Source: a candidate division WOR-1 bacterium RIFOXYB2_FULL_42_35 (GTDB taxonomy: Bacteria > Margulisbacteria > WOR-1 > O2-12-FULL-45-9). From it: a stretch of 64,000 bases of DNA. Below are positions 956-46,580 of this stretch, piece by piece. Each line of letters opens with the position of its first letter. Position 1 is the first letter of the stretch. The translations under genes and the position numbers were made by a program. A model generated the notes under the pieces. It saw only the letters and a list, made by a program, of their open reading frames with translations. It did no database searches and was not told the DNA's origin. The stretch covers positions 1,445-65,444 of the forward strand of contig MEUC01000029.1 in NCBI GenBank assembly GCA_001771545.1. Reading direction: 5' to 3'.

Positions 956-3900
956 TTGTCTTCGTCTGATGGCCAGGGCCTGCCCATTGTTTCCCCGCCT
1001 GTGCAGCCTACAGAGTGTTTGTCTAGCGACCACCCCAAATATTTATTGCAAGTACTATCTGAATATATAGCAGAAGTACGCGATTATAATTCTATAACTT
1101 CTTTTAACCTTGGTTTTGTTGATCAACGCTCAAACCAAATGACCCGTCCATTAGGATTTATGTCTTTATGGTTATTGCTGATCTGGTGGGAAAAAGATTG
1201 CCAACCGCTTAAGGAAAATGACCTTAAAGGTTTATTGCCTGATGGGCAATACAAAGAAACAATTGACAATTTAATTAAAGCTGGCTGGCTGCAAGAAGTT
1301 GCTGGTGGCCTAACGCCTAAGCTGGGTCATTGGCAAGAGAACCCAAAGCGTTTTTGCCAGTTAATAGTAATAAATTTGAGATTTTTCTTAACAGCTTCAA
1401 GGCAGAATGATCCCGGGTGCAAGGAAGACCCCGTGGCTTTCTTTTTGTCTATGGTAGAAATGGACAAAGAGCTTTTATCGCAGTGTGCTGACCAGGAAAA
1501 AATTTTAGTTGCAAAAGAAAACTTAAACAATCCCTGGGAAAAGGCTTTAATGGCTTTTTCTATTGAAAGAAAATTTTATATTTTTACCTTTTTGAGCAAT
1601 TTGGCGCAAAATATTTTTGAAGCTCTTGGTTCTTTGAAGGAGGGTAGTGATATTCCCTTAAGAAGCACAAGATTTCCAGAAAACACATTGTTTCACAAGA
1701 TTTTTTACTCCCATGATGCGTTATCGTTTAGAGATAAAAAAGAGCAATTTGCAAATGCTTCTGACCAAGAAATGCTTAGGTTAAATAATTTGGCAAGTTT
1801 TTATGATGTTCCTTGGCGCATAGCGAAAGTCATAGCTAAAGGCAGGGCAAAACCTGTTTTTGCCGGTGTCTCTATAGGCCAAATAGCAGGACAGCCTTAT
1901 ATATTTATAAAAAATCTTTTCAACTTCACACCAGAACAGGGCTCATCATTTGACATTTCTGGTTCAGGGGGGGCACCCGTGATATTTCTTACAGCAAGTG
2001 ATAGCCGTGACGTATCAATGGCTGTTTTTGACCAAGAGATGCCTTGTGCTTCTATCTTTTCGCAGGTGATAAATCGCCTTTTGTCAAATGATGTGTTTTT
2101 GCGCATAATTGAAGAAAAATGGGATACTTTGATTTTTTCAAAGGTTTTAAGTGAGCCCACAGAGCCGGGTCAGCAAAGATTGCTTTCGATGATTAAATTC
2201 TTTGCTCCTGATGGCCAGCTTACAGATAAAGAGAGTTTTTTAGCTTTTCTGTTTTATATGCTGGTCAATCCTGCTTTTTTGGGTTGTGATTTTGTTTTTG
2301 GCTTTGTTTTACCTCTTTTTTTAAACTGTATTAAGAATATTGACTTTGCAAATAATACCTTTTCTTTAAACACAGAAAACATAACAGCTTTGGCCGAGAA
2401 GTTATCTCAAGAAAGAGAGGGGCAAACGCAGCGGCCCACCAATCCCTCACCTCCCGCTTTAGTAAAAGCACTTTTGCCTGATTTGATAAACTGTGGTTTG
2501 CTTGATATTTCAGTCATACAAGACACCCTGCAATATCACTTAAGCAGGGAATTAGAAGATTTTGTTTTGTTGGACAAATTGCCCTTTGGCCAGCCAGATT
2601 TTGATCAAAGCTCTAAAGAAATACTGGTTGATTATTTTGTTGAGCGTGGTTTTTTGGAAAAAAATGGGGCAGGGGCAGTTAGGTTGAGTGCCCAAAAAAG
2701 ACAAGAAGTAAACGCAAGCATTAGACAGCAACTAATAGAAATTATAAGCCCATTACCTGACAACACCGGCACAACCTTGTCGCGTAACCCACAAGAAAGG
2801 ACAAGAATTGCCGAGATTAATCCTCAACTAAGGGGACAAAGCTTTGCTTTTAAACTAAGGCTTGATCCTGCAGCTATTTCGCGTTTTAGTCAGGCAGGAG
2901 AGGTTATGCCCCTGGCGATACCAGGGTTTAGTTCTTTAGTTTTGTTGCCATCTGCAAAGGCCGCGCGGTTAAAGGATGCCAAAACTATGCTGATTTTAGG
3001 AAATGGGAAAAGAGTTAGATTTTATCTTTTTAATGATGAAACAAGAAAGCTGACGCTTCTTAGCCGTGTCACAGAGGCAGATTTTTTTAATAAAGAGTCA
3101 ACCCCAGAGATGAGTTTTAGCTCAATTCCTTGCTTAGGTAAGGTCAATGTTTTAGGAGCTACCGCAAGCGAACAGCAGGCTTTAGCTCCGCTAGCCAAAA
3201 TATTAGCTGATTTTAATGTACAGGCTTTTGAAGTGCGTGACAGTTTGGCATTTGATTGTCAATGGGAAGGCAATACCCTGGTGCTACGGCCAACTGTTTT
3301 GGCAGACTTGAGTCAGGTTGATGTCTTGTTATTAGCTTGTAATCTGTTGTTAGCTAGAGAAAATGAAGCTAACAAAAAAATAAAAATTATTTTGCAATTA
3401 TTTAAAACAGAAACAAGGCCAGAGTTAATCAAAGAAATGGAAGCAGTGGTTAAAGAACTGCCGGAAGAAAATTTGTTCCGGCATTATCCCGGGCAAATGA
3501 GCGCGGTTATTCGTTTACTCCACGATTTTAAAGACGTCAAAGGCCGCGCGCCAGCAGATTTAAAGCGCTTATTATTAGAGCGGTTATTAGTTTTTAGCCA
3601 GGAAACAAGATCTTCTGATTTTTGCTCGTATACTGGCCAAGGCACAAGCAATAGTATTAAATTGGAGCAATGGCCAGAACAAAAAACCCGTTTTATTGGT
3701 TTAGGTGTAGCTATGGTAGCAGAAAGCCAGGTTGGTTTGGGCAGCCAGGGAGTTGATTTCTTTTGCAGTAACCCGGCAAAGGGTCATTTGCTGCTTTATG
3801 TTTATTTCAGGGATCGAGAAGGTAAAATCATTGAAAAACTTTATACTTTGGCTGGCCAGCCTTATGAGCAGCATTTAATGTGGGAAAGGGATTTAGCTGT

Positions 3901-5179
3901 TATTGAGCAGACACACGGAGTTGATCTTGGTTTTATAAGAAAGCAGGGCTTAACCGAAGTCGAAAAGTTTTTACCTGCGACCCAAACTGTGTTAGCCTGT
4001 TTAGGCAGTGAGAAATTTTTAAAAGACACTTGTGTTTTAACCTCATTATGGCAGCTTTGTTCTGTAGCGCAGGGAGCTGATCTTCCCTTAGTTAGGCAGG
4101 CTTTGCTGGAAAATTTAGTTCCGGCTTTTATAAACAGTAATGAAGCTGAAGTCCAAAAATTGCTTGGCCAAATTTTACTACAGCTAGGTTTAGTTGATAG
4201 GGAGTTTGAATCTGTAGCTGACTGGGCTGATTATATTAATCAAGTAGTCAGGCCTGGTTTGCAGGTATTATCAGGCCAGCTGGCTGATAGTGACGATGTT
4301 TTGTACAATTGGTTGTCAGCTATCGAAGGTCGTTTGCAAGCAGCAGAACAAGCCCAAATTAAAGCTGGCCAAACACTTTTGGGCGAGGTGTTTTATAGGA
4401 ATGTTCCTGATTTAAGGGCTTTAGATCCGCAGACTTTACTTAACCTGGCGCTTTATTTTAAAGCCAGGCAAGCAGTTGGTGATGATCCTCAATTTACAGG
4501 AACTATTACTGAAGTTCTACCCAAAGAAAAAATAGTTGATCCGAGAGAGCGAGCTTTACCAGTAACAGCTTCTCCTGCTGATCGATTGTCTGGCACTTTA
4601 GGAAAAGTAAGAAATCTTTTTGATACTGCTTTGAACGGGGCTGGTTTGGGTGTGCAAAACGCTCTTCAAGCAGCAATTAATGCTGTTAGTTCCTATCCTC
4701 ATCAAGAAGTATTTCTGCCTTTGACCATATTAACAAGCTTGTTGGCCCAGTTTGATTCTAATAATCCTAAAAAGGATGTTACTGCTGTTAGGGATATTAC
4801 ACCCCAAGATCCCCATACTGGCGAAAAAATAAGGTCTGTGCATGTTGCTGGTTTTTCCTGGAATAATGATAGCGTTAAATATTATGTCCGTTTAGTTGCC
4901 AGGCGCCATGCTACTTTTTTTGGTCAAGCGCGGATTAGTGTTACTGTTTTTGCTGATCAAGACCAGCAAAAAGAATTGGCAGCTTTTAGGATTGATCTGG
5001 AAAAAAGAGGCGCAACCATTGATTTGGGCGGTTTATTTATAGCCGAAGCTTTAAGCGTGAGAGCTAGCGGTTATCATTTTGCTTCTTTCTTGCCACGAGC
5101 CTTGTCTGACCCTGATACTTTTTCTAAGTTTATCCAAGATCTTCAGCAAAGGCTCTGGGCTAAGCTGGACGTTAAGTAA
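956..5179 (+). CDS. Very large hypothetical protein (1407 aa). No domain recognised. Rich in Leu, Ala and Gln.
   Basis: Uninterrupted 4.2-kb ORF with a TTG start in the ORF track. No recognisable catalytic motif. Composition is more GC-rich than neighbouring genes. Confidence 0.6.
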   Translation: MSSSDGQGLPIVSPPVQPTECLSSDHPKYLLQVLSEYIAEVRDYNSITSFNLGFVDQRSNQMTRPLGFMSLWLLLIWWEKDCQPLKENDLKGLLPDGQYKETIDNLIKAGWLQEVAGGLTPKLGHWQENPKRFCQLIVINLRFFLTASRQNDPGCKEDPVAFFLSMVEMDKELLSQCADQEKILVAKENLNNPWEKALMAFSIERKFYIFTFLSNLAQNIFEALGSLKEGSDIPLRSTRFPENTLFHKIFYSHDALSFRDKKEQFANASDQEMLRLNNLASFYDVPWRIAKVIAKGRAKPVFAGVSIGQIAGQPYIFIKNLFNFTPEQGSSFDISGSGGAPVIFLTASDSRDVSMAVFDQEMPCASIFSQVINRLLSNDVFLRIIEEKWDTLIFSKVLSEPTEPGQQRLLSMIKFFAPDGQLTDKESFLAFLFYMLVNPAFLGCDFVFGFVLPLFLNCIKNIDFANNTFSLNTENITALAEKLSQEREGQTQRPTNPSPPALVKALLPDLINCGLLDISVIQDTLQYHLSRELEDFVLLDKLPFGQPDFDQSSKEILVDYFVERGFLEKNGAGAVRLSAQKRQEVNASIRQQLIEIISPLPDNTGTTLSRNPQERTRIAEINPQLRGQSFAFKLRLDPAAISRFSQAGEVMPLAIPGFSSLVLLPSAKAARLKDAKTMLILGNGKRVRFYLFNDETRKLTLLSRVTEADFFNKESTPEMSFSSIPCLGKVNVLGATASEQQALAPLAKILADFNVQAFEVRDSLAFDCQWEGNTLVLRPTVLADLSQVDVLLLACNLLLARENEANKKIKIILQLFKTETRPELIKEMEAVVKELPEENLFRHYPGQMSAVIRLLHDFKDVKGRAPADLKRLLLERLLVFSQETRSSDFCSYTGQGTSNSIKLEQWPEQKTRFIGLGVAMVAESQVGLGSQGVDFFCSNPAKGHLLLYVYFRDREGKIIEKLYTLAGQPYEQHLMWERDLAVIEQTHGVDLGFIRKQGLTEVEKFLPATQTVLACLGSEKFLKDTCVLTSLWQLCSVAQGADLPLVRQALLENLVPAFINSNEAEVQKLLGQILLQLGLVDREFESVADWADYINQVVRPGLQVLSGQLADSDDVLYNWLSAIEGRLQAAEQAQIKAGQTLLGEVFYRNVPDLRALDPQTLLNLALYFKARQAVGDDPQFTGTITEVLPKEKIVDPRERALPVTASPADRLSGTLGKVRNLFDTALNGAGLGVQNALQAAINAVSSYPHQEVFLPLTILTSLLAQFDSNNPKKDVTAVRDITPQDPHTGEKIRSVHVAGFSWNNDSVKYYVRLVARRHATFFGQARISVTVFADQDQQKELAAFRIDLEKRGATIDLGGLFIAEALSVRASGYHFASFLPRALSDPDTFSKFIQDLQQRLWAKLDVK

Positions 5180-11410: not shown

Positions 11411-12091
11411 ATGAACAAACACTACGAAGAGCTCGGTTTCGCCAAAGTTGATCACCACCGCATTAAACGCAAAGGTTTTCCTGAAGTCATTTATGGGCAA
11501 GGGAAAACTCCAGAGCAAATTACCAAGATCGCCCAAAGCTTAACCAAAAAGAAACAAAACGTCTTAGTAACTCGGACAGATAAAAAGGCCTTCGAAGCTG
11601 TTAAGAAAGCTCTGCCTAAAGCAAAGTTTTATGAGACTGCAAGGATTATTACGGTAAAAAGACTGCCAGACCGCCAGACTTCCAGACTGCCAGACCGCCA
11701 GACTATTAGCATTATAAGTGCGGGAACCGCAGATCTGCCAGTCACCGAAGAAGCCGCTGTTACCGCTGAGTTTCTTGGACTCAAAGTTAAGAGGTTTTAC
11801 GATGTTGGCGTGGCTGGCATTCATCGTTTGATCAATAACATCAAAGAAATTAGAAAAGCTAAAGTCATAATTGTCGTTGCCGGCATGGAAGGAGCCCTCC
11901 CCTCTGTTGTTGGCGGCTTGGTTGATAAACCAATTATTGCTGTGCCAACCTCTGTTGGCTATGGGGCAAGCTTTAAGGGAGTATCTGCACTTTTAACAAT
12001 GATGAATAGCTGTGTCCCTGGAATTGCGGTCGTGAACATTGATAATGGCTTTGGTGCTGCTGTTATGGCTTATAGTATAATAAAAGTATGA
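11411..12091 (+). CDS. larB: Nickel-pincer cofactor biosynthesis protein LarB (PurE-like carboxylase/hydrolase).
   Basis: PurE-like core …[42 protein letters not shown]… in the LarB architecture. It is adjacent to larC. Confidence 0.75.
11661..11704 (+). repeat. Tandem duplication of a 20-bp unit, with a 4-bp spacer and a 24-bp period, inside larB. It encodes [16 protein letters not shown].
   Basis: gactgccagaccgccagact occurs twice in direct succession. Confidence 0.8.
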
Positions 12092-13152
12092 AAACCCTCT
12101 ATTTTGACTGCTCCTCCGGTATCGCCGGCAATATGATCCTTGGAGCACTACTTGATCTAGGAGTAGCTGAAAACTATCTGCGCAAAGAACTCAAAAAGAT
12201 TCCCCTACCACCCTACAAGTTAATCATTCAAAAAGTTGAACGAAATAAGATTAAGGCAACTTTTGTTGATGTTGAACTATCTGGCCATCATCATGATCAT
12301 CACCACTATAACCTCAAGAATATTATAAAAATCATCGACAAAAGTAAATTAGCTAAAGATATTAAGAAAAAAGCCAAGCAGATTTATAAAAGATTAATTC
12401 AAGCTGAAGCTGCGGTGCATAAAAAGCCTCTGCACAGCGTTCATCTCCACGAAGTTGGGGCCACAGATGCCATGATCGATATTATTGGCACACTGATCTG
12501 CCTAAAGAAGTTGGGCATAGAAAAACTCTATTCGTCCCCGATAAATGTCGGATCCGGAACAGTTAAGCACGCCCATGGAATCCTCCCCGTTCCTGCTCCT
12601 GCAACCGCAGAGCTGCTAAAAGGGATCCCTTTTTATGGCTTAAAAGTTGGCAAAGAGCTGGCCACGCCAACGGGCGTTGTGCTCATAACTTCTTTAGCAA
12701 AGGGCTTTGGCGAAATCCCTCGTTTGATCTTTGAAAAAGCTGGCAATGGCGCCGGCGGACATGTTATCCCCAAACTCCCTAATATTTTAAGAGTGATTAT
12801 GGCCTCTAACGTTACCCATACCGATACCGACACCATTCTCCAAATAGAGACTAATATTGATGATATGAATCCTAAACTCTATGATCAAGCTATTGCCAAA
12901 TTAATGGGAGCAGGCGCACTTGATGCTTCTATCCAGCCAATTCGCATGAAGAAAAAAAGAAATGCTTTCAAGTTAGAGGTTTTATGCCAAACAAATGATA
13001 AGGCTAAGATTCTAGAAACTTTATTCACTGTTACTACCACAATTGGCACCAGAGTTTATCTGGTTAAAAGAGAAAAGCTAAAAAGACAAATCAAAAACGG
13101 ACACAAGGTCAGCTATCTGGGAGAAAAAATTGTCAGGAGCAAAAAAGAATAA
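12088..13152 (+). CDS. larC: Nickel insertion protein LarC (pyridinium-3,5-bisthiocarboxylic acid mononucleotide nickel chelatase, DUF111).
   Basis: N-terminus [25 protein letters not shown] and a His-rich stretch HHHDHHH. Overlaps the larB stop by 4 nt. Confidence 0.75.
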
Positions 13153-31155: not shown

Positions 31156-31366
31156 GTCTAACGGTTATTATATCAACCATTAATTAGAAGGACAAACAAA
31201 AAGCGCCCGGCTTTAGCTTTCAAATCCTGCAAGGGACTTACTCGCCAAAGCCAGGCTGTTTTTTATTCGTCCCCGATGTAACATCGGAAAACAGGAATAA
31301 GTCTTGGACTTAATTTTGCACGCTCTGCATTTCCGTAGAGATACAAACTCCGGCATCTTTAAGTAT

Positions 31367-31448
31367 TCGACCAGGTGAACCGCGTTGTTGTTATAACGAT
31401 TATCAGGGTTGTTGTTGTTGTTGCGGTTCGCGTTGTTCAGAGAACGCC
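31367..31448 (-). repeat. DGR template repeat (TR), adenine-rich on the minus strand with AAC codons.
   Basis: 82-bp match to 32845-32926 with 12 mismatches. All 12 are A in this copy (minus strand). Confidence 0.85.
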
Positions 31449-31460
31449 GGATTTACAGGC

Positions 31461-32456
31461 TTATCCCTTTATTAAAATATTAGAAAACAATTTTCTCCTT
31501 AGATGGAATGAATTGGCAAATACGGCGTACCCCAGCCAGCTTTGTATTGAGCAAGTAATCTTGGGTATGGACATTAAGTTGCTTTGAAAAAGGCTGATAT
31601 ATTTTCTCATTCTTATTTTAAAGCGCTTGACGTTTTCTTTGGCCACCAGCTTATGGCTGGGATAAACCTTATAGCCAAGAAACTTCACGCCGTTCTTAGT
31701 TGGATAGACCTGGCATTTATTAGCATGCAGTTGCAGCTTTAGCTTTTCAAGATAATCAGCAATTCTTTTTCTGGCCTGGTTTAGCTGTCCTTTATCATTA
31801 CCAAATACTATCAGGTCGTCCATATAACGGAGGTAAAACCGGCATTTAAGGTTTTCTTTTAAATAATGGTCTAACCCATTGAGATAAAGATTGGCAAATA
31901 TCTGGCTAGCTAAATTCCCAATCGGAATCCCAGGAGAAGGTGTTGAATCAATAATTAGTTTAATCAGCCAAAGAGCTTCCGGGTCTTTTATCTTATCCAT
32001 AATCATCCCGAGTAAGATTTCGTGATCTATGGAAGCAAAATAGTTTTTAACGTCGCACTTCAAAGCATATTTATTTTTGCGGCAATATACTTGAAACCGG
32101 CTAACAGCCCGATGGCTGCCTTTGCTTTTCCGGCAAGCGTAGGAATCGAAGATCAGCACCCGATCAAAAATGGGCTCAATGACATTGCAAAGTGCATGCT
32201 GGGCAACTCGATCTCGGTAAGGCAAGGCACTGATTAGTCTCTTTTTCGGATCATAGATATGGAATTGCTTGTAGTGACCAACCCGATATGTGTGGCTTTG
32301 GAGTTCTGCCTGAAGAGTAAAAATCTCTTTTTCAAAACCAAGATTAAAATCGCTGACAGGGGTTTTGAGCTTCTTGCCTCTCTGGGCCTTCCCGGCCGCT
32401 AAAAGGAGGTTCTCAAAAGAGCAGATTTTCTCATAAAGATTATGATGCCTTTTCAT
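31461..32456 (-). CDS. Diversity-generating-retroelement reverse transcriptase.
   Basis: RT motifs …RYMDDLIVFG… and the DGR-specific IPIGNLASQIFANLYLNGLD. Flanked by TR and VR. Confidence 0.85.
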   Translation of the reverse strand: MKRHHNLYEKICSFENLLLAAGKAQRGKKLKTPVSDFNLGFEKEIFTLQAELQSHTYRVGHYKQFHIYDPKKRLISALPYRDRVAQHALCNVIEPIFDRVLIFDSYACRKSKGSHRAVSRFQVYCRKNKYALKCDVKNYFASIDHEILLGMIMDKIKDPEALWLIKLIIDSTPSPGIPIGNLASQIFANLYLNGLDHYLKENLKCRFYLRYMDDLIVFGNDKGQLNQARKRIADYLEKLKLQLHANKCQVYPTKNGVKFLGYKVYPSHKLVAKENVKRFKIRMRKYISLFQSNLMSIPKITCSIQSWLGYAVFANSFHLRRKLFSNILIKG

Positions 32457-32778
32457 GTTTTAGCCAGCCCCCAACCTGGGAACCGATTTCCAAAAGATAT
32501 CGGGCAGCGAACTCATAGCTCTTAAGATTGATCAAACGCAGATCATGGCTAAGGCGAAACAGATAGCGCAGCTTTTCAATTTCAAGATTTGCGTTCTTAA
32601 GCGCATTAGTTTTGTCTTTGGAATATTGGGCTTCAATGAGAAGCTCCAACAGGCCAATTACTTTATTTTCGATTCTTTCTCCGAGGGTATATCTTTGATT
32701 GCGCGGGAACTTCGCAATGTGGGGGACGACCCATCTGAGGAAATCATAGGAACAGGTTACGACTTTTGGCCCTTCCAT
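32440..32778 (-). CDS. Probable DGR accessory variability determinant (Avd-like small helical protein).
   Basis: 112-aa helical ORF between the VR-bearing target and the RT. Overlaps the RT start by 17 nt. Confidence 0.5.
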   Translation of the reverse strand: MEGPKVVTCSYDFLRWVVPHIAKFPRNQRYTLGERIENKVIGLLELLIEAQYSKDKTNALKNANLEIEKLRYLFRLSHDLRLINLKSYEFAARYLLEIGSQVGGWLKHEKAS

Positions 32779-32837
32779 ATTATGCTAAAATTTTCCTTCC
32801 CCACCCCTAAAAAAGTAAAAGGATAAAGCTTAATTTA

Positions 32838-33500
32838 TTAGTCCTCGACCAGGTGAACCGCGCTGCTGCCATAACGATCATCAGGGCTGCTGCTGAAGTT
32901 GCGGTTCGCGTAGTACAGAGAACGCCAATAGTAGGTGTCACTCCCCTTGCTGCTTTCTACCAAAAACCAATTATTCCCTCTCAGTTTAGCTTTCACATCA
33001 GCTGGTAAAGCCACAAATTCAGCCTCAGTCATAAACCTAAACTTTCTGCCTCGTTCATTTGCTCCTTTAATATAGTTCTTCGCATCATCCACATTTAAAA
33101 ACGTCAATGTCTCTCCGCTCGGCTCTTTCAAGCGGTCCCGAAGCGCTTCCTTGTTATGGCCGCTAACTTTCTCTGGCTTTAAGAATTGTGCGGCTTCAGC
33201 GTCTGTTAATTCTCCTATCATTATTTTTTTATAAGTTTGCCCCTCAACATTAAGCATATGCGGGAAAATTGTCTCGGGCTGGACTATATCCACAAGTTCT
33301 ATTTGAATGGCAACAGGATCTCGCCTTTGAGCTAGTAGAGATGGGAGGTCAGCGACCTTGTCTTCTGGTCTAAAACCTGGTCCTTTATGACCTGCCAGTC
33401 TTTTTGCCATTGCCTCTACTTTGGCTTTGTCTGACACTCCATCACTGGCACGGACTAGAACAGAACCTAAACTCTTTTTATCAATCCTTAAAAAACTCAT
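32838..33500 (-). CDS. DGR variable (target) protein with a minimal C-type-lectin/FGE-like fold. The VR lies at the C-terminus.
   Basis: …RKFRFMTEAEFVA… then WRSLYYANRNFSSSPDDRYGSSAVHLVED, encoded by the VR. Confidence 0.75.
   Translation of the reverse strand: MSFLRIDKKSLGSVLVRASDGVSDKAKVEAMAKRLAGHKGPGFRPEDKVADLPSLLAQRRDPVAIQIELVDIVQPETIFPHMLNVEGQTYKKIMIGELTDAEAAQFLKPEKVSGHNKEALRDRLKEPSGETLTFLNVDDAKNYIKGANERGRKFRFMTEAEFVALPADVKAKLRGNNWFLVESSKGSDTYYWRSLYYANRNFSSSPDDRYGSSAVHLVED
32845..32926 (-). repeat. DGR variable repeat (VR).
   Basis: Pairs with the TR at 31367-31448. The substitutions A→G (8) and A→T (4) all fall at TR adenines. Confidence 0.85.
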
Positions 33501-33588: not shown

Positions 33589-33897
33589 TTGAAAATAGTT
33601 TTGGGAGGAGAAGGCATGGTGCCAAAAAAAGAACTTAACACGGCAGTTAAACTCGCCAAAGAATACGGTGTGGGAAAATTGTATTTGTTTGGGTCTTCTT
33701 TGCATAAAAAATCCAGCGCAGTGAACGATTACGACTTCGCCGTAGCAGGCATCGCCCCTTCCAGGTTCTTTGCGTTTTATGGCAAATTATTTAGGGCTTT
33801 AAGCAAACCCGTCGATCTTGTCGATCTTTCGGAAAAATCTCTTTTTAATTCTCTCATAATAAGGGAAGGGAAGAAAATCTATGATAAATCTTCCTGA
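33589..33897 (+). CDS. Minimal nucleotidyltransferase (MntA-like antitoxin).
   Basis: GKLYLFGSSLHKKSSAVNDYDFAV matches the pol-beta NTase motif GS…D.D. Its 3' end overlaps the following HEPN gene. Confidence 0.65.
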   Translation: MKIVLGGEGMVPKKELNTAVKLAKEYGVGKLYLFGSSLHKKSSAVNDYDFAVAGIAPSRFFAFYGKLFRALSKPVDLVDLSEKSLFNSLIIREGKKIYDKSS

Positions 33898-34297
33898 GAA
33901 AATTTCCGCAGAAATAGACAATATAGAAAAATCCCTGGCCAATCTTTCCTCGCCCCTAAAGAAAAAGAAGAAATCAATTATAGAAATAGCGGGGATGGCC
34001 GCTTTCATCCAAAACATTTACAATGGTATCGAAAACATTTTAAAACAAATATTGAAGTCCAAAAACGTTTCTGTTGCTCACCCTGAAATATGGCACAAGG
34101 AATTACTGGAAAAATCAGTTAAAAACAACATCATCCCCGACGAGCTGGCCGAAGCACTTTACGAGTATCTCACCTTCAGGCATTTTTTTATCCATTCTTA
34201 TAGTTTTATGCTGGACAAAAAAAAAGTAGTTGCGCTGGCAAACAACATAAACAAGCTTTGGCAAAAGTTTTTAGGAGAAATAAAACCTTACCGGTAA
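33881..34297 (+). CDS. HEPN-domain (HepT-like) toxin.
   Basis: The R-x4-H motif in …[10 protein letters not shown]…. Confidence 0.6.
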
Positions 34298-35666: not shown

Positions 35667-37289
<1,623 letters not shown>

Positions 37290-37297
<8 letters not shown>

Positions 37298-37640
37298 AAA
37301 TGGTCCCCTTCTTTATATTATCAACAACTTGCTTAACGCGAATATCTCTTATCCCTGCAGGAGTTAAAAGATCAACTTTTCTACCAAATGAATCTTCAAG
37401 AAAAAAAGCCAAATCCATAAAATTATCAAAACTGGTTTTCTTAAATTCAACAACCAAATCTATATCACTTTGGCTACTTTGTTCACCCCGGGCAAAAGAA
37501 CCAAACAAGCCAATGCGTTTAACATTAAATTTCTGCAAAACCCCGCTATTTTTCTTTAAAAAGCCTAAAATATCATCAGCCGTAAGATTTTTGCCATCTT
37601 TTCCTTTTTTATCATCTTTCATGTTTATTAGTATACCCAA
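37290..37640 (-). CDS. Nucleotidyltransferase antitoxin (MntA family).
   Basis: IGLFGSFARGEQSSQSDIDLVV. Confidence 0.7.
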
Positions 37641-45471: not shown

Positions 45472-45690
45472 TCAAAATCCTACTCCTGCCTTACAAACAG
45501 AACCAGCCGAAGTCCCAGCCACACACCTATCATCAGCTACATTGCCTTGACTACAACCACCAGGCCCACCAGCACTTTGCCCAGCAGAACAAGCTGGTTG
45601 GGGTGCTGCTTCGCCGTTCATACAGACACCCATTGTTGTGTCGAGAGAAAAAAACATGTGTACTTTTGGCGTAGAATATTCTCTTTGCAT
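45472..45690 (-). CDS. Small Gly/Ser/Cys-rich peptide (72 aa) with five C-x-x-G motifs. Candidate RiPP precursor.
   Basis: Leader-like N-terminus MQREYSTPKVHMFFSLDTTMG, then core VCMNG…ACSAG…GCSQG…RCVAG…VCKAG. Confidence 0.45.
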   Translation of the reverse strand: MQREYSTPKVHMFFSLDTTMGVCMNGEAAPQPACSAGQSAGGPGGCSQGNVADDRCVAGTSAGSVCKAGVGF

Positions 45691-45705
45691 AGTAAAAGAT
45701 ATTGT

Positions 45706-45960
45706 TTAGGCTGCACTATTTCCAGAACCACACCTAGTCTGAACCCCAGTGTTACCACCTAAATAACAATTGTCTTCGCCTGGCCCAGAACCGTCATAAC
45801 ATCTAAAGTTAGAACTCCCGCCGCCACAATTTTGAAGCCCAGGATCTGATCCCAAATCGCACTCCATCCCCGGAGTACTAGCCCCACTCCCACTAATACA
45901 AGCACCAACCCCTTGATCCAAAATATTGAAAAGAACCAATCGTGGAATTTCGTACTTCAT
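45706..45960 (-). CDS. Small Gly/Ser/Cys-rich peptide (84 aa) with six C-x-x-G motifs. Paralogue of the preceding ORF.
   Basis: MKYEIPRLVLFNILDQGVG leader, then a core with CISG, CDLG, CGGG, CYDG, CYLG, CGSG. Confidence 0.45.
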   Translation of the reverse strand: MKYEIPRLVLFNILDQGVGACISGSGASTPGMECDLGSDPGLQNCGGGSSNFRCYDGSGPGEDNCYLGGNTGVQTRCGSGNSAA

Positions 45961-46010
45961 AAAGTTCCCTCCATATTTATTTATCTATCGACTTATGATA
46001 TTATAATATA

Positions 46011-46580
46011 ATGCAAAGCAAAATCAAGGCCTGTCTCAAAGAAAGTATCGAAGTTAAAAACCTGGTTTTAAAAAGCCTGATACCACAAATTGAACAAGCC
46101 GCTAAAATAATGATTGCTGCTCTTAAAAACGGCAATAAAATCATGTTTTTTGGTAATGGCGGCTCTGCAGCTGATGCGCAACACTTGGCTGGCGAGTTAA
46201 TTGGTCGTTTTTTAAAAGAACGTAAATCTCTCCCAGCAATTGCTTTAACAACCGACACTTCAATTCTGACCTGTTTGGCCAATGATTACACTTTTGACTA
46301 TATTTTTGCTCGTCAAATCGAAGGATTGGCTAAACCAGGAGACATTGCTTTTGGAATTTCTACGTCCGGCAACTCAAAAAATGTTATCCAAGGCCTGGAA
46401 AAAGCTAAAGAGCTGGGCTGTAAAACCATTGGCCTGCTTGGTTGTGACGGGGGGAGAATAACAGACTTAGTTGATGTGGCTATAACTGTCCCCTGCAAAG
46501 CCACCCCTCATATTCAGGAAAGCCATATCACCATCGGCCATATCCTCTGTGGATTAATTGAAGAGGAAGTGACAAAATAG
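46011..46580 (+). CDS. gmhA: Phosphoheptose isomerase (SIS domain).
   Basis: …IMFFGNGGSAADAQHLAGEL…. Confidence 0.85.
   Translation: MQSKIKACLKESIEVKNLVLKSLIPQIEQAAKIMIAALKNGNKIMFFGNGGSAADAQHLAGELIGRFLKERKSLPAIALTTDTSILTCLANDYTFDYIFARQIEGLAKPGDIAFGISTSGNSKNVIQGLEKAKELGCKTIGLLGCDGGRITDLVDVAITVPCKATPHIQESHITIGHILCGLIEEEVTK

Follow-up and report, generated by a model that had tools for sequence, protein, structure and literature searches.

The DNA analysed here, called the window throughout, is a 64,000-nucleotide stretch of contig MEUC01000029.1 (assembly GCA_001771545.1, positions 1,445 to 65,444) from the candidate division WOR-1 bacterium RIFOXYB2_FULL_42_35. [quoted passage not shown] The analysis suggests, with moderate confidence, that they are divergent, repeat-expanded homologues of ScmA, the precursor of the SynChlorMet (SCM) cassette, and represent two recurrent subtypes, with SCM enzymes that are unlinked to the pair and presumed to lie elsewhere in the genome. 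The homology reading is based on kinship to cassette-adjacent peptides, on the kept leader and repeat architecture and on the conserved enzyme set in relatives. The features of the locus are the following.

45706..45960, minus strand: pep1, long-type ScmA-like precursor of 84 amino acids plus stop, assigned from the ORF and the cassette-adjacent hidden Markov model (HMM) described below
45472..45690, minus strand: pep2, short-type ScmA-like precursor of 72 amino acids plus stop, assigned from the ORF and the same HMM
45904..45960, minus strand: predicted leader of pep1, residues 1-19, MKYEIPRLVLFNILDQGVG, with Y3-x-x-P6-x-L8, placed from the leader profile
45628..45690, minus strand: predicted leader of pep2, residues 1-21, MQREYSTPKVHMFFSLDTTMG, with Y5-x-x-P8-x-V10, placed in the same way
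45709..45903, minus strand: predicted core of pep1, residues 20-84, with six C-x-x-G units (C21, C34, C45, C54, C65, C77)
45475..45627, minus strand: predicted core of pep2, residues 22-72, with five C-x-x-G units (C23, C34, C46, C56, C66)
46000..46027, minus strand: sigma-70-like promoter 5' of pep1, TTGATT-16-TATAAT, a consensus match only (10/12)
45966..45972, minus strand: Shine-Dalgarno-like GGAGGGA 5' of the pep1 ATG, read directly off the sequence

Every cysteine of the two ORFs opens a C-x-x-G unit, as had been pointed out in the initial annotation. Glycine is found at the third position after cysteine in 6/6 cases in pep1 and 5/5 in pep2, an arrangement that arose by chance in 4 and 10, respectively, of 200,000 composition-preserving shuffles. 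The distances from cysteine to cysteine are 13, 11, 9, 11 and 12 residues in pep1 and 11, 12, 10 and 10 in pep2, so that the periodicity first described is real, with a range of 9-13 that is slightly wider than the 9-11 given for it. An F-x-x-L-D motif, also described as conserved, is common to the pair and is not the conserved leader feature of the family, which lies upstream of it as Y-x-x-P-[KR]-[LV]. The C-terminus of pep1 reads C-G-S-G-N-S-A-A (a long-type tail) and that of pep2 C-K-A-G-V-G-F (a short-type tail). BLASTP aligns the two with an E value of 0.001 and 24 identical columns, and they are judged to be related, paralogue-like peptides. The gap from the pep1 stop to the pep2 start is 15 nucleotides, and the promoter-like site of pep1 falls in an intergenic region common with the divergent gene gmhA.

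Scans of both peptides against Pfam and NCBIfam returned nothing even at E <= 10, and a word-indexed search with pep1 recovered only itself, listed for candidate division WOR-1 bacterium RIFOXYB2_FULL_42_35 as a hypothetical protein. With a two-sequence profile, an exhaustive HMMER search yielded 13 further full-length relatives (71-89 amino acids, E < 1e-3), along with one spurious repeat protein. When pep1 and pep2 were aligned with their relatives, a proline in the leader M-K-Y-x-x-P-K-L (Pro6) and five C-x-x-G units were found to be invariant, and a search driven by this alignment gave 36 clusters, all unannotated. Because profile searches recover relatives with the invariant leader proline and C-x-x-G units, the two peptides are assigned to a genuine peptide family, to any member of which their identity is at most about 40%. 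These searches also bear on the explanation that pep1 and pep2 are no genes but spurious ORFs of a stretch that is intergenic or GC-skewed. Their lack of a Pfam or NCBIfam match would fit it, as would the omission of pep2 by two gene callers in some assemblies; the 'missing' calls are gene-caller differences. An absence of homologues in relatives had been named beforehand as one sign of spurious ORFs; the profile searches and the scans of cassette loci together found dozens, from many phyla, with conserved leader and repeat positions and a conserved genomic context. Together with the promoter-like site and the strong ribosome-binding site 5' of pep1, this homology refutes the explanation, to which practically no probability is given.

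The grammar of the family was computed on 135 non-redundant sequences, with peptide lengths of 60-100 amino acids. The leader follows M-K-[Y/W]-x-x-P-x-L-x-x-[LIF], with Tyr in 84% and Trp in 15% of sequences, Pro in 100% and Leu in 82%, and the form [YW]-x-x-P-x-[LIV] is present in pep1 (Y3, P6, L8, followed by C21) and in pep2 (Y5, P8, V10, followed by C23). The distance from the proline to the first cysteine has a mode of 15 residues in the family and is exactly 15 in both pep1 and pep2, and 74% of members have Gly or Ala two residues before the first cysteine. The core repeat is C-x-x-G-x-x-A (frequency of Gly 0.89 and of Ala 0.50), with the next cysteine 10-12 residues on and a modal spacing of 10; a tail of 3-5 residues extends beyond the last repeat unit. 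From the register against the leaders of lasso peptides (PMC10368454) and of linear polyphosphorylated peptides (LPP; PMC13381572), the junction of leader and core should fall approximately one to three residues before the first cysteine. In pep1 this would place it between about residues 18 and 20, in ...Q-G-V-G-A-C21, and in pep2 approximately in ...T-M-G-V-C23.

Two subtypes recur in the family. The short one has about 70 amino acids and ends in C-x-x-G-x-G-[FY], as pep2 does, and the long one has about 80-98 and ends in C-x-x-G-N-x-[PA]-x, as pep1 does. The homologous loci L011 and L016 each carry one long and one short peptide near the cassette, and L019 has a long and short tandem pair with a 16-nucleotide gap, analogous to pep1 and pep2. 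The short member of L019 (P0009) aligns with pep2 without gaps at 38% identity. Some variation on this design was also seen. In L150 (5610-5903) and L153 (3920-4213) a short-type precursor is apparently frameshifted, with the leader and first repeat (MQYQAPKLYRIFPFETGEAACASG...) in one frame and the rest in another, and it may be either a pseudogene or an assembly error. The SCM locus of a Syntrophales genome (L045, 10810-12499 and 18502-18933) encodes four larger, very Cys-rich peptides of about 140 amino acids, with CC and C-x-C clusters and the same K-Y-E-x-P-K-L leader, which suggests a further diversification of the ScmA-like family.

On the longest contigs, the homologues of pep1 and pep2 adjoin one conserved cassette, which is named by NCBIfam as SynChlorMet. 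Its curated models are ScmA (TIGR04252), ScmC (TIGR04249/PF27840), ScmD (TIGR04248), ScmE (TIGR04250) and ScmF (TIGR04251). In the homologue loci, the PqqD-type protein ScmD scored 98 and 125 bits (cutoff 100), the radical-SAM/SPASM proteins ScmE and ScmF scored 547 and 569 bits and 485 and 607 bits (cutoff 400 for each), and ScmC scored 223 and 272 bits (cutoff 125). The other parts are an archaeal-type S26 signal peptidase, an MsbA-like ABC exporter and, at many loci, an NTP_transf_5 protein. Such partners fit the option of radical-SAM modification raised in the initial annotation, and the occurrence of homologues beside a radical-SAM/SPASM cassette in dozens of genomes bears out its proposal of RiPP precursors.

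The association was tested in reverse with a pattern scan for ScmC, using motifs invariant across phyla, of 185,579 GTDB species representatives, which gave 74 ScmC loci. A peptide matching the family HMM is present in 43 of the 74; in 34 reference-genome loci it lies at most 600 nucleotides from scmC, mostly on the same strand and just upstream. A motif scan added about 14 ScmC loci with divergent peptides of like design, including Chlorobium. In metagenomes, 36 of 80 ScmC loci among the matches listed have a family peptide, many of the contigs being very short. An HMM built from 53 non-redundant scmC-adjacent peptides recognises pep2 with E 8.7e-15 (50.9 bits) and pep1 with E 2.5e-11 (39.8 bits). 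Over 1,331 ORF segments of the window, this HMM found only these two significant, the next best having an E value of 0.18. In a set of 67 ScmC loci with a length of 12 kb or more, ScmD was counted in 55, the S26 peptidase in 52, ScmE in 44, ScmF in 44, an NTP-transferase-like (NTP_transf_5-like) protein in 39 and the ABC exporter in 32. A link to glycosyltransferases or ADP-heptose was considered and rejected after a crude test, since glycosyltransferase-like genes occur in only 7 of the 67 cassettes.

ScmC has a GGTGKST P-loop. Its AlphaFold model, with a predicted local distance difference test (pLDDT) score of 91.9 and a predicted template modelling (pTM) score of 0.90, matches the folds of phosphoenolpyruvate carboxykinases (PEPCK; E 6e-7) and of HPr kinase/phosphatase (HprK; E 3e-5), and the PEPCK/HprK relation has weak support from sequence also. 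At two loci, one from a Eubacteriales metagenome-assembled genome (MAG; L030, 9284-9844) and one from an Aminicenantes MAG (L031, 10486-11442), the precursor is in frame with an S26 peptidase-like domain. In L030, the 25 codons that precede the leader motif contain no ATG, GTG or TTG. The arrangement looks like a natural fusion of peptidase and precursor, and the in-frame fusion of L030 supports a peptidase-substrate relationship.

The conserved partners also bear on two other accounts of what pep1 and pep2 may be. The first, raised in the initial annotation, is that they are precursors of linear azol(in)e-containing peptides similar to microcin B17, with a YcaO cyclodehydratase and a dehydrogenase encoded elsewhere. 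The Gly/Ser/Cys-rich composition is the only point in its favour. The window and all homologous loci lack a YcaO or McbC-type dehydrogenase gene, the conserved partners are radical-SAM/SPASM enzymes, and the invariant pattern of Cys, Gly at +3 and Ala at +6 is not the adjacent-residue pattern expected for azoles; the azol(in)e account is thus very improbable. The second account holds that they are not RiPPs at all and are small secreted or structural Cys-repeat mini-proteins, with a metal-binding or a disulfide or solenoid architecture, that merely co-occur with the cassette. A regular repeat of Cys and Gly every 10-12 residues could form a solenoid or bind metal, and the SCM product is not characterised. 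Several findings speak against such mini-proteins. Neither a signal peptide nor a hydrophobic segment was found in the two sequences, and an AlphaFold model of pep1 made with a 30-sequence alignment has no confident autonomous fold (pLDDT 43.9, pTM 0.19), as expected for a precursor. In addition, the conserved N-terminal [YW]xxPxL matches leaders bound by RiPP recognition elements (RREs), the homologues are placed tightly and on the same strand beside scmC and scmD, and one homologue is fused in frame to a leader-peptidase homologue. The mini-protein account is accordingly considered improbable, if less so than the azol(in)e one.

To place the pair relative to known families, the curated ScmA model was examined. 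TIGR04252, the 'SynChlorMet cassette protein ScmA', has 49 positions and a cutoff of 35 bits. When ten scmC-adjacent peptides from ten phyla were compared with it, 1/10 passed (an Omnitrophota peptide, 39.1 bits); the Saganbacteria peptide scored 21.1 bits, and the others scored 7-15 bits or nothing. The model is narrow and covers only a small fraction of the true family of precursors. ScmA has the leader K-[YW]-x-x-P-x-L and the C-x-x-G-x-x-A repeat in common with the family of pep1 and pep2, and the two are linked through a cassette-adjacent peptide that is matched by the family HMM and passes the curated ScmA cutoff. The pair differs from ScmA as modelled in having 5-6 repeats in 72-84 amino acids against 49 positions, in forming a long and short tandem pair, and in having no SCM gene linked to it over about 73 kb. 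By their sequences, pep1 and pep2 are classified as new, divergent, repeat-expanded ScmA-like precursors outside the curated model, and not as a new kind of system. A place within or next to an scmC/D/E/F cassette would be expected of an ScmA precursor; pep1 and pep2 do not have one, and they are unusual for the ScmA-like family in this respect.

[quoted passage not shown] In this system a kinase polyphosphorylates Ser3 of the core, and the SpI-like peptidase removes the leader with assistance from the RRE (PMC13381572). The leader motif [Y/W]xxPx[L/V/I] is bound by discrete PqqD-like RREs in lasso pathways, at positions -17 to -12 (PMC10368454), and it has this role in LPP as well (Popov et al., Nat Commun 2026, PMC13381572). 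The SCM cassette similarly has an archaeal-type SpI-like peptidase, a discrete RRE, a kinase similar to HprK, an NTP-transferase and an exporter of the MsbA-like type, so that the LPP core gene set is present at the level of the SCM family and absent from the window. Both SCM and LPP have the [Y/W]xxPx[L/V/I] leader and often lie in polysaccharide loci. The first cysteine of the ScmA-like family stands 18 residues after the leader tyrosine (Y3/C21 in pep1, Y5/C23 in pep2), which is the offset of the phosphorylated Ser3 in YxxPxVLxHQxIxFETxxS; this shared offset is suggestive only. Unlike SCM, LPP clusters are without radical-SAM enzymes, of which the LPP text and supplements make 0 mentions (PMC13381572), and LPP cores are variable and not of the Cys-repeat type, whereas SCM adds ScmE, ScmF and a C-x-x-G repeat core. 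Position 18 after the tyrosine is Cys and not Ser in the ScmA-like family, and the rest of the LPP leader logo is not conserved there, only Y-x-x-P-x-[LV] being common. Taken together, SCM looks like an LPP-type chassis combined with two radical-SAM/SPASM enzymes and a Cys-repeat core.

Paeninodin-type lasso peptides are similar in their YxxPxL leader motif, located about 17 to 12 residues before the core and bound by a PqqD-like RRE, and in their accessory genes for an HprK-like kinase and an NTP-transferase (PMC10368454). ScmD weakly matches the lasso PqqD models. They differ in that no lasso cyclase or B2 peptidase occurs in any homologous locus, and in that ScmA-like cores have 50-65 amino acids. 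A lasso reading of pep2 (Gly1...Glu7) was rejected on the first of these grounds and since pep1, which has no Asp or Glu at core positions 7-9, does not fit it.

Sactipeptides and ranthipeptides (subtilosin/AlbA and freyrasin/PapB) resemble SCM in combining Cys-bearing cores with radical-SAM/SPASM enzymes and an RRE, and freyrasin has repeated Cys motifs. ScmE and ScmF partly match the models StsB, AlbA and PapB, with scores far below the cutoffs for these classes (StsB 103 bits vs 625; PapB 99.5 vs 340; AlbA 71 vs 850); they also fall far below the cutoffs for SkfB and for PQQ- and mycofactocin-type maturases. In contrast to both classes, SCM has two radical-SAM enzymes together with a kinase-fold protein and an SpI peptidase. 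The ACGX-repeat system (TIGR04340) and the Cys-every-fifth protein CefB (NF038107) likewise pair a periodic-Cys precursor with a SPASM maturase, and ScmE matches rSAM_ACGX at 114 bits, below the cutoff of 400. Their difference from SCM lies in its repeat unit of 10-12 residues, C-x-x-G-x-x-A, and in the accessory gene set.

From these comparisons, a pathway can be proposed in which the PqqD-type ScmD would bind the N-terminal [YW]-x-x-P-x-L leader and present the peptide to the radical-SAM/SPASM enzymes ScmE and ScmF, which would act on the C-x-x-G-x-x-A repeats. The most economical guess for their action is one Cys-derived cross-link per repeat. ScmC, with its PEPCK/HprK-type P-loop kinase fold, and the NTP-transferase may add further tailoring, and the MsbA-like ABC pump would export the product. 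For the host genome, the presumption is that the SCM genes lie elsewhere and that their enzymes act in trans.

The statement of the initial annotation that no maturase lies in the window stands, as Pfam scans of the window found none. Neither the window nor the adjoining sequence L017 has a homologue of ScmC, ScmD, ScmE, ScmF, the S26 peptidase, the NTP-transferase or the ABC exporter. A 292-amino-acid radical-SAM protein encoded in L017 (5568-6446), about 27 kb beyond pep2 and outside the window, was ruled out as a maturase for its lack of a SPASM domain and its scores below all cutoffs. Its gene is the sole radical-SAM gene in the window and the 9 kb beyond it and lies between an MFS transporter gene and feoAB; in NCBIfam the protein matches the PTO1314 family best, with 89.8 bits against a cutoff of 306. 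A metagenomic contig (L121) was likewise rejected as the host's own cassette, with a GC content of 48.8% against 41% for the window. In the related lineage, two Candidatus Saganbacteria MAGs carry ScmC and family peptides. One of them (L072) has a full cassette, with ScmC at 272, ScmD at 125, ScmE at 569 and ScmF at 607 bits, and its precursor lies 5 kb from the cassette on the opposite strand. The WOR-1/Saganbacteria lineage therefore uses the SCM system, and the suggestion in the initial annotation that the enzymes are encoded elsewhere is plausible for the host genome.

The strongest alternative is that pep1 and pep2 are orphans. Here the host would have lost the SCM cassette or never had it, and the peptides would be recent relics, or act unmodified, or be handled by unrelated enzymes. 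This agrees with the absence of any SCM gene in about 73 kb of contig and of any WOR-1 RIFOXY match among the 74 ScmC loci, and members at L019 and L176 are also without a visible cassette on the DNA at hand. Yet every family-invariant position is kept in pep1 and pep2, including a leader motif that serves recognition only, at an identity to relatives of about 40% or less, which argues for long-term selection with the machinery present. Related Saganbacteria carry complete cassettes, and the negative searches for a cassette in the host are incomplete, owing to the incompleteness of MAGs, the pattern-based nature of the scan and metagenome matches listed only in part. The orphan account is considered somewhat unlikely, though well ahead of the mini-proteins discussed above. 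SCM enzymes encoded elsewhere in the genome and acting in trans are favoured over true orphans and are judged fairly probable, and because leader and repeat positions are perfectly kept at such low identity, the machinery would have been present.

A number of observations weigh against pep1 and pep2 being ScmA homologues with enzymes acting in trans. tblastn with SCM proteins found none in the 64-kb window or in 9 kb beyond it, so that the DNA without SCM genes runs for about 45 kb from the pair in one direction and 27 kb in the other. Among the species representatives, the ScmC pattern scan picked out the two Saganbacteria MAGs and no RIFOXY WOR-1 contig, the metagenome scan returned no ScmC contig from the samples of the host population among the matches listed, and a ScmC protein search returned none from WOR-1 among the best 120 of 335 clusters. 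Both peptides give no match to TIGR04252 even at E <= 10, and no obvious ribosome-binding site was seen upstream of pep2. The DNA of the locus is identical in 23/23 contigs carrying the genes, all from one population, and selection (the ratio of nonsynonymous to synonymous substitution rates, dN/dS) is unmeasurable because of this identity. Finally, no paper on the SCM product or its chemistry was found in the literature searched, SCM being defined computationally only, and every SCM chemical step is an inference because no SCM product has been characterised.

A broader proposal can be made tentatively: that SCM-type peptides, including pep1 and pep2, constitute an undescribed RiPP chemotype, in which an LPP-like chassis (RRE, HprK-fold kinase, SpI-type leader peptidase and NTP-transferase) is joined by two radical-SAM/SPASM enzymes that act on the C-x-x-G-x-x-A repeats, with the first cysteine standing, relative to the leader, exactly where LPP has its phospho-Ser. 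The host genome, of the Saganbacteria lineage, would keep both precursor subtypes in a stand-alone operon far from any cassette, and possibly has none; if true, this would imply trans-acting or alternative maturation.

Further features of the window were noted around the peptide pair. The neighbours had been described as hicBA and gmhA. A HicA gene beside the pair is supported by Pfam and gmhA is confirmed, as are gmhB and hldE, while the putative HicB upstream (72-78 amino acids) has no HMM support. The region is rich in toxin-antitoxin (TA) systems, hicA next to the pair included, and it contains two HepT/MNT-type TA modules, one with HepT-like_2 at 33881..34297 and one with NTP_transf_2 and HepT-like at about 36959-37622. 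A diversity-generating retroelement (DGR) lies at 31355-33500, with the following parts.

31461..32456, minus strand: DGR reverse transcriptase ORF (RVT_1, E 7.5e-26; scoring under the cutoffs for group II introns and retrons)
31355-31448: DGR template repeat of 94 nucleotides
32833-32926: DGR variable copy, 82% identical, at the 3' end of an unannotated 220-amino-acid ORF (32838..33500, minus strand)

Read on the minus strand, every mismatch in the well-aligned portion of the DGR repeats falls at a template adenine. An AIR-carboxylase-like ORF (11411..12091) adjoins a 'nickel insertion protein' ORF (12088..13152; PF01969, E 3e-123), a pair that we take to be reminiscent of the LarB/LarC nickel-pincer cofactor genes. 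Five large ORFs have no Pfam match at E <= 1e-5. The fourth of these, at a distance of 1.5 kb from the pair, is without an NCBIfam match too.

956-5179: large ORF of 1407 amino acids
5189-6520: large ORF of 443 amino acids
25784-27001: large ORF of 405 amino acids
42242-43906: large ORF of 554 amino acids
55167-56339: large ORF of 390 amino acids

These results place a RiPP system in the uncultivated WOR-1/Saganbacteria lineage and describe SCM as a peptide system of the radical-SAM/SPASM type that is widespread, its ScmC clusters numbering 335 in many phyla of anaerobes. The match of accessory genes between SCM and LPP gives testable predictions of what ScmC, ScmD and the peptidase do. Precursors may lie tens of kilobases from their enzymes, which matters for genome mining that relies on co-localisation.

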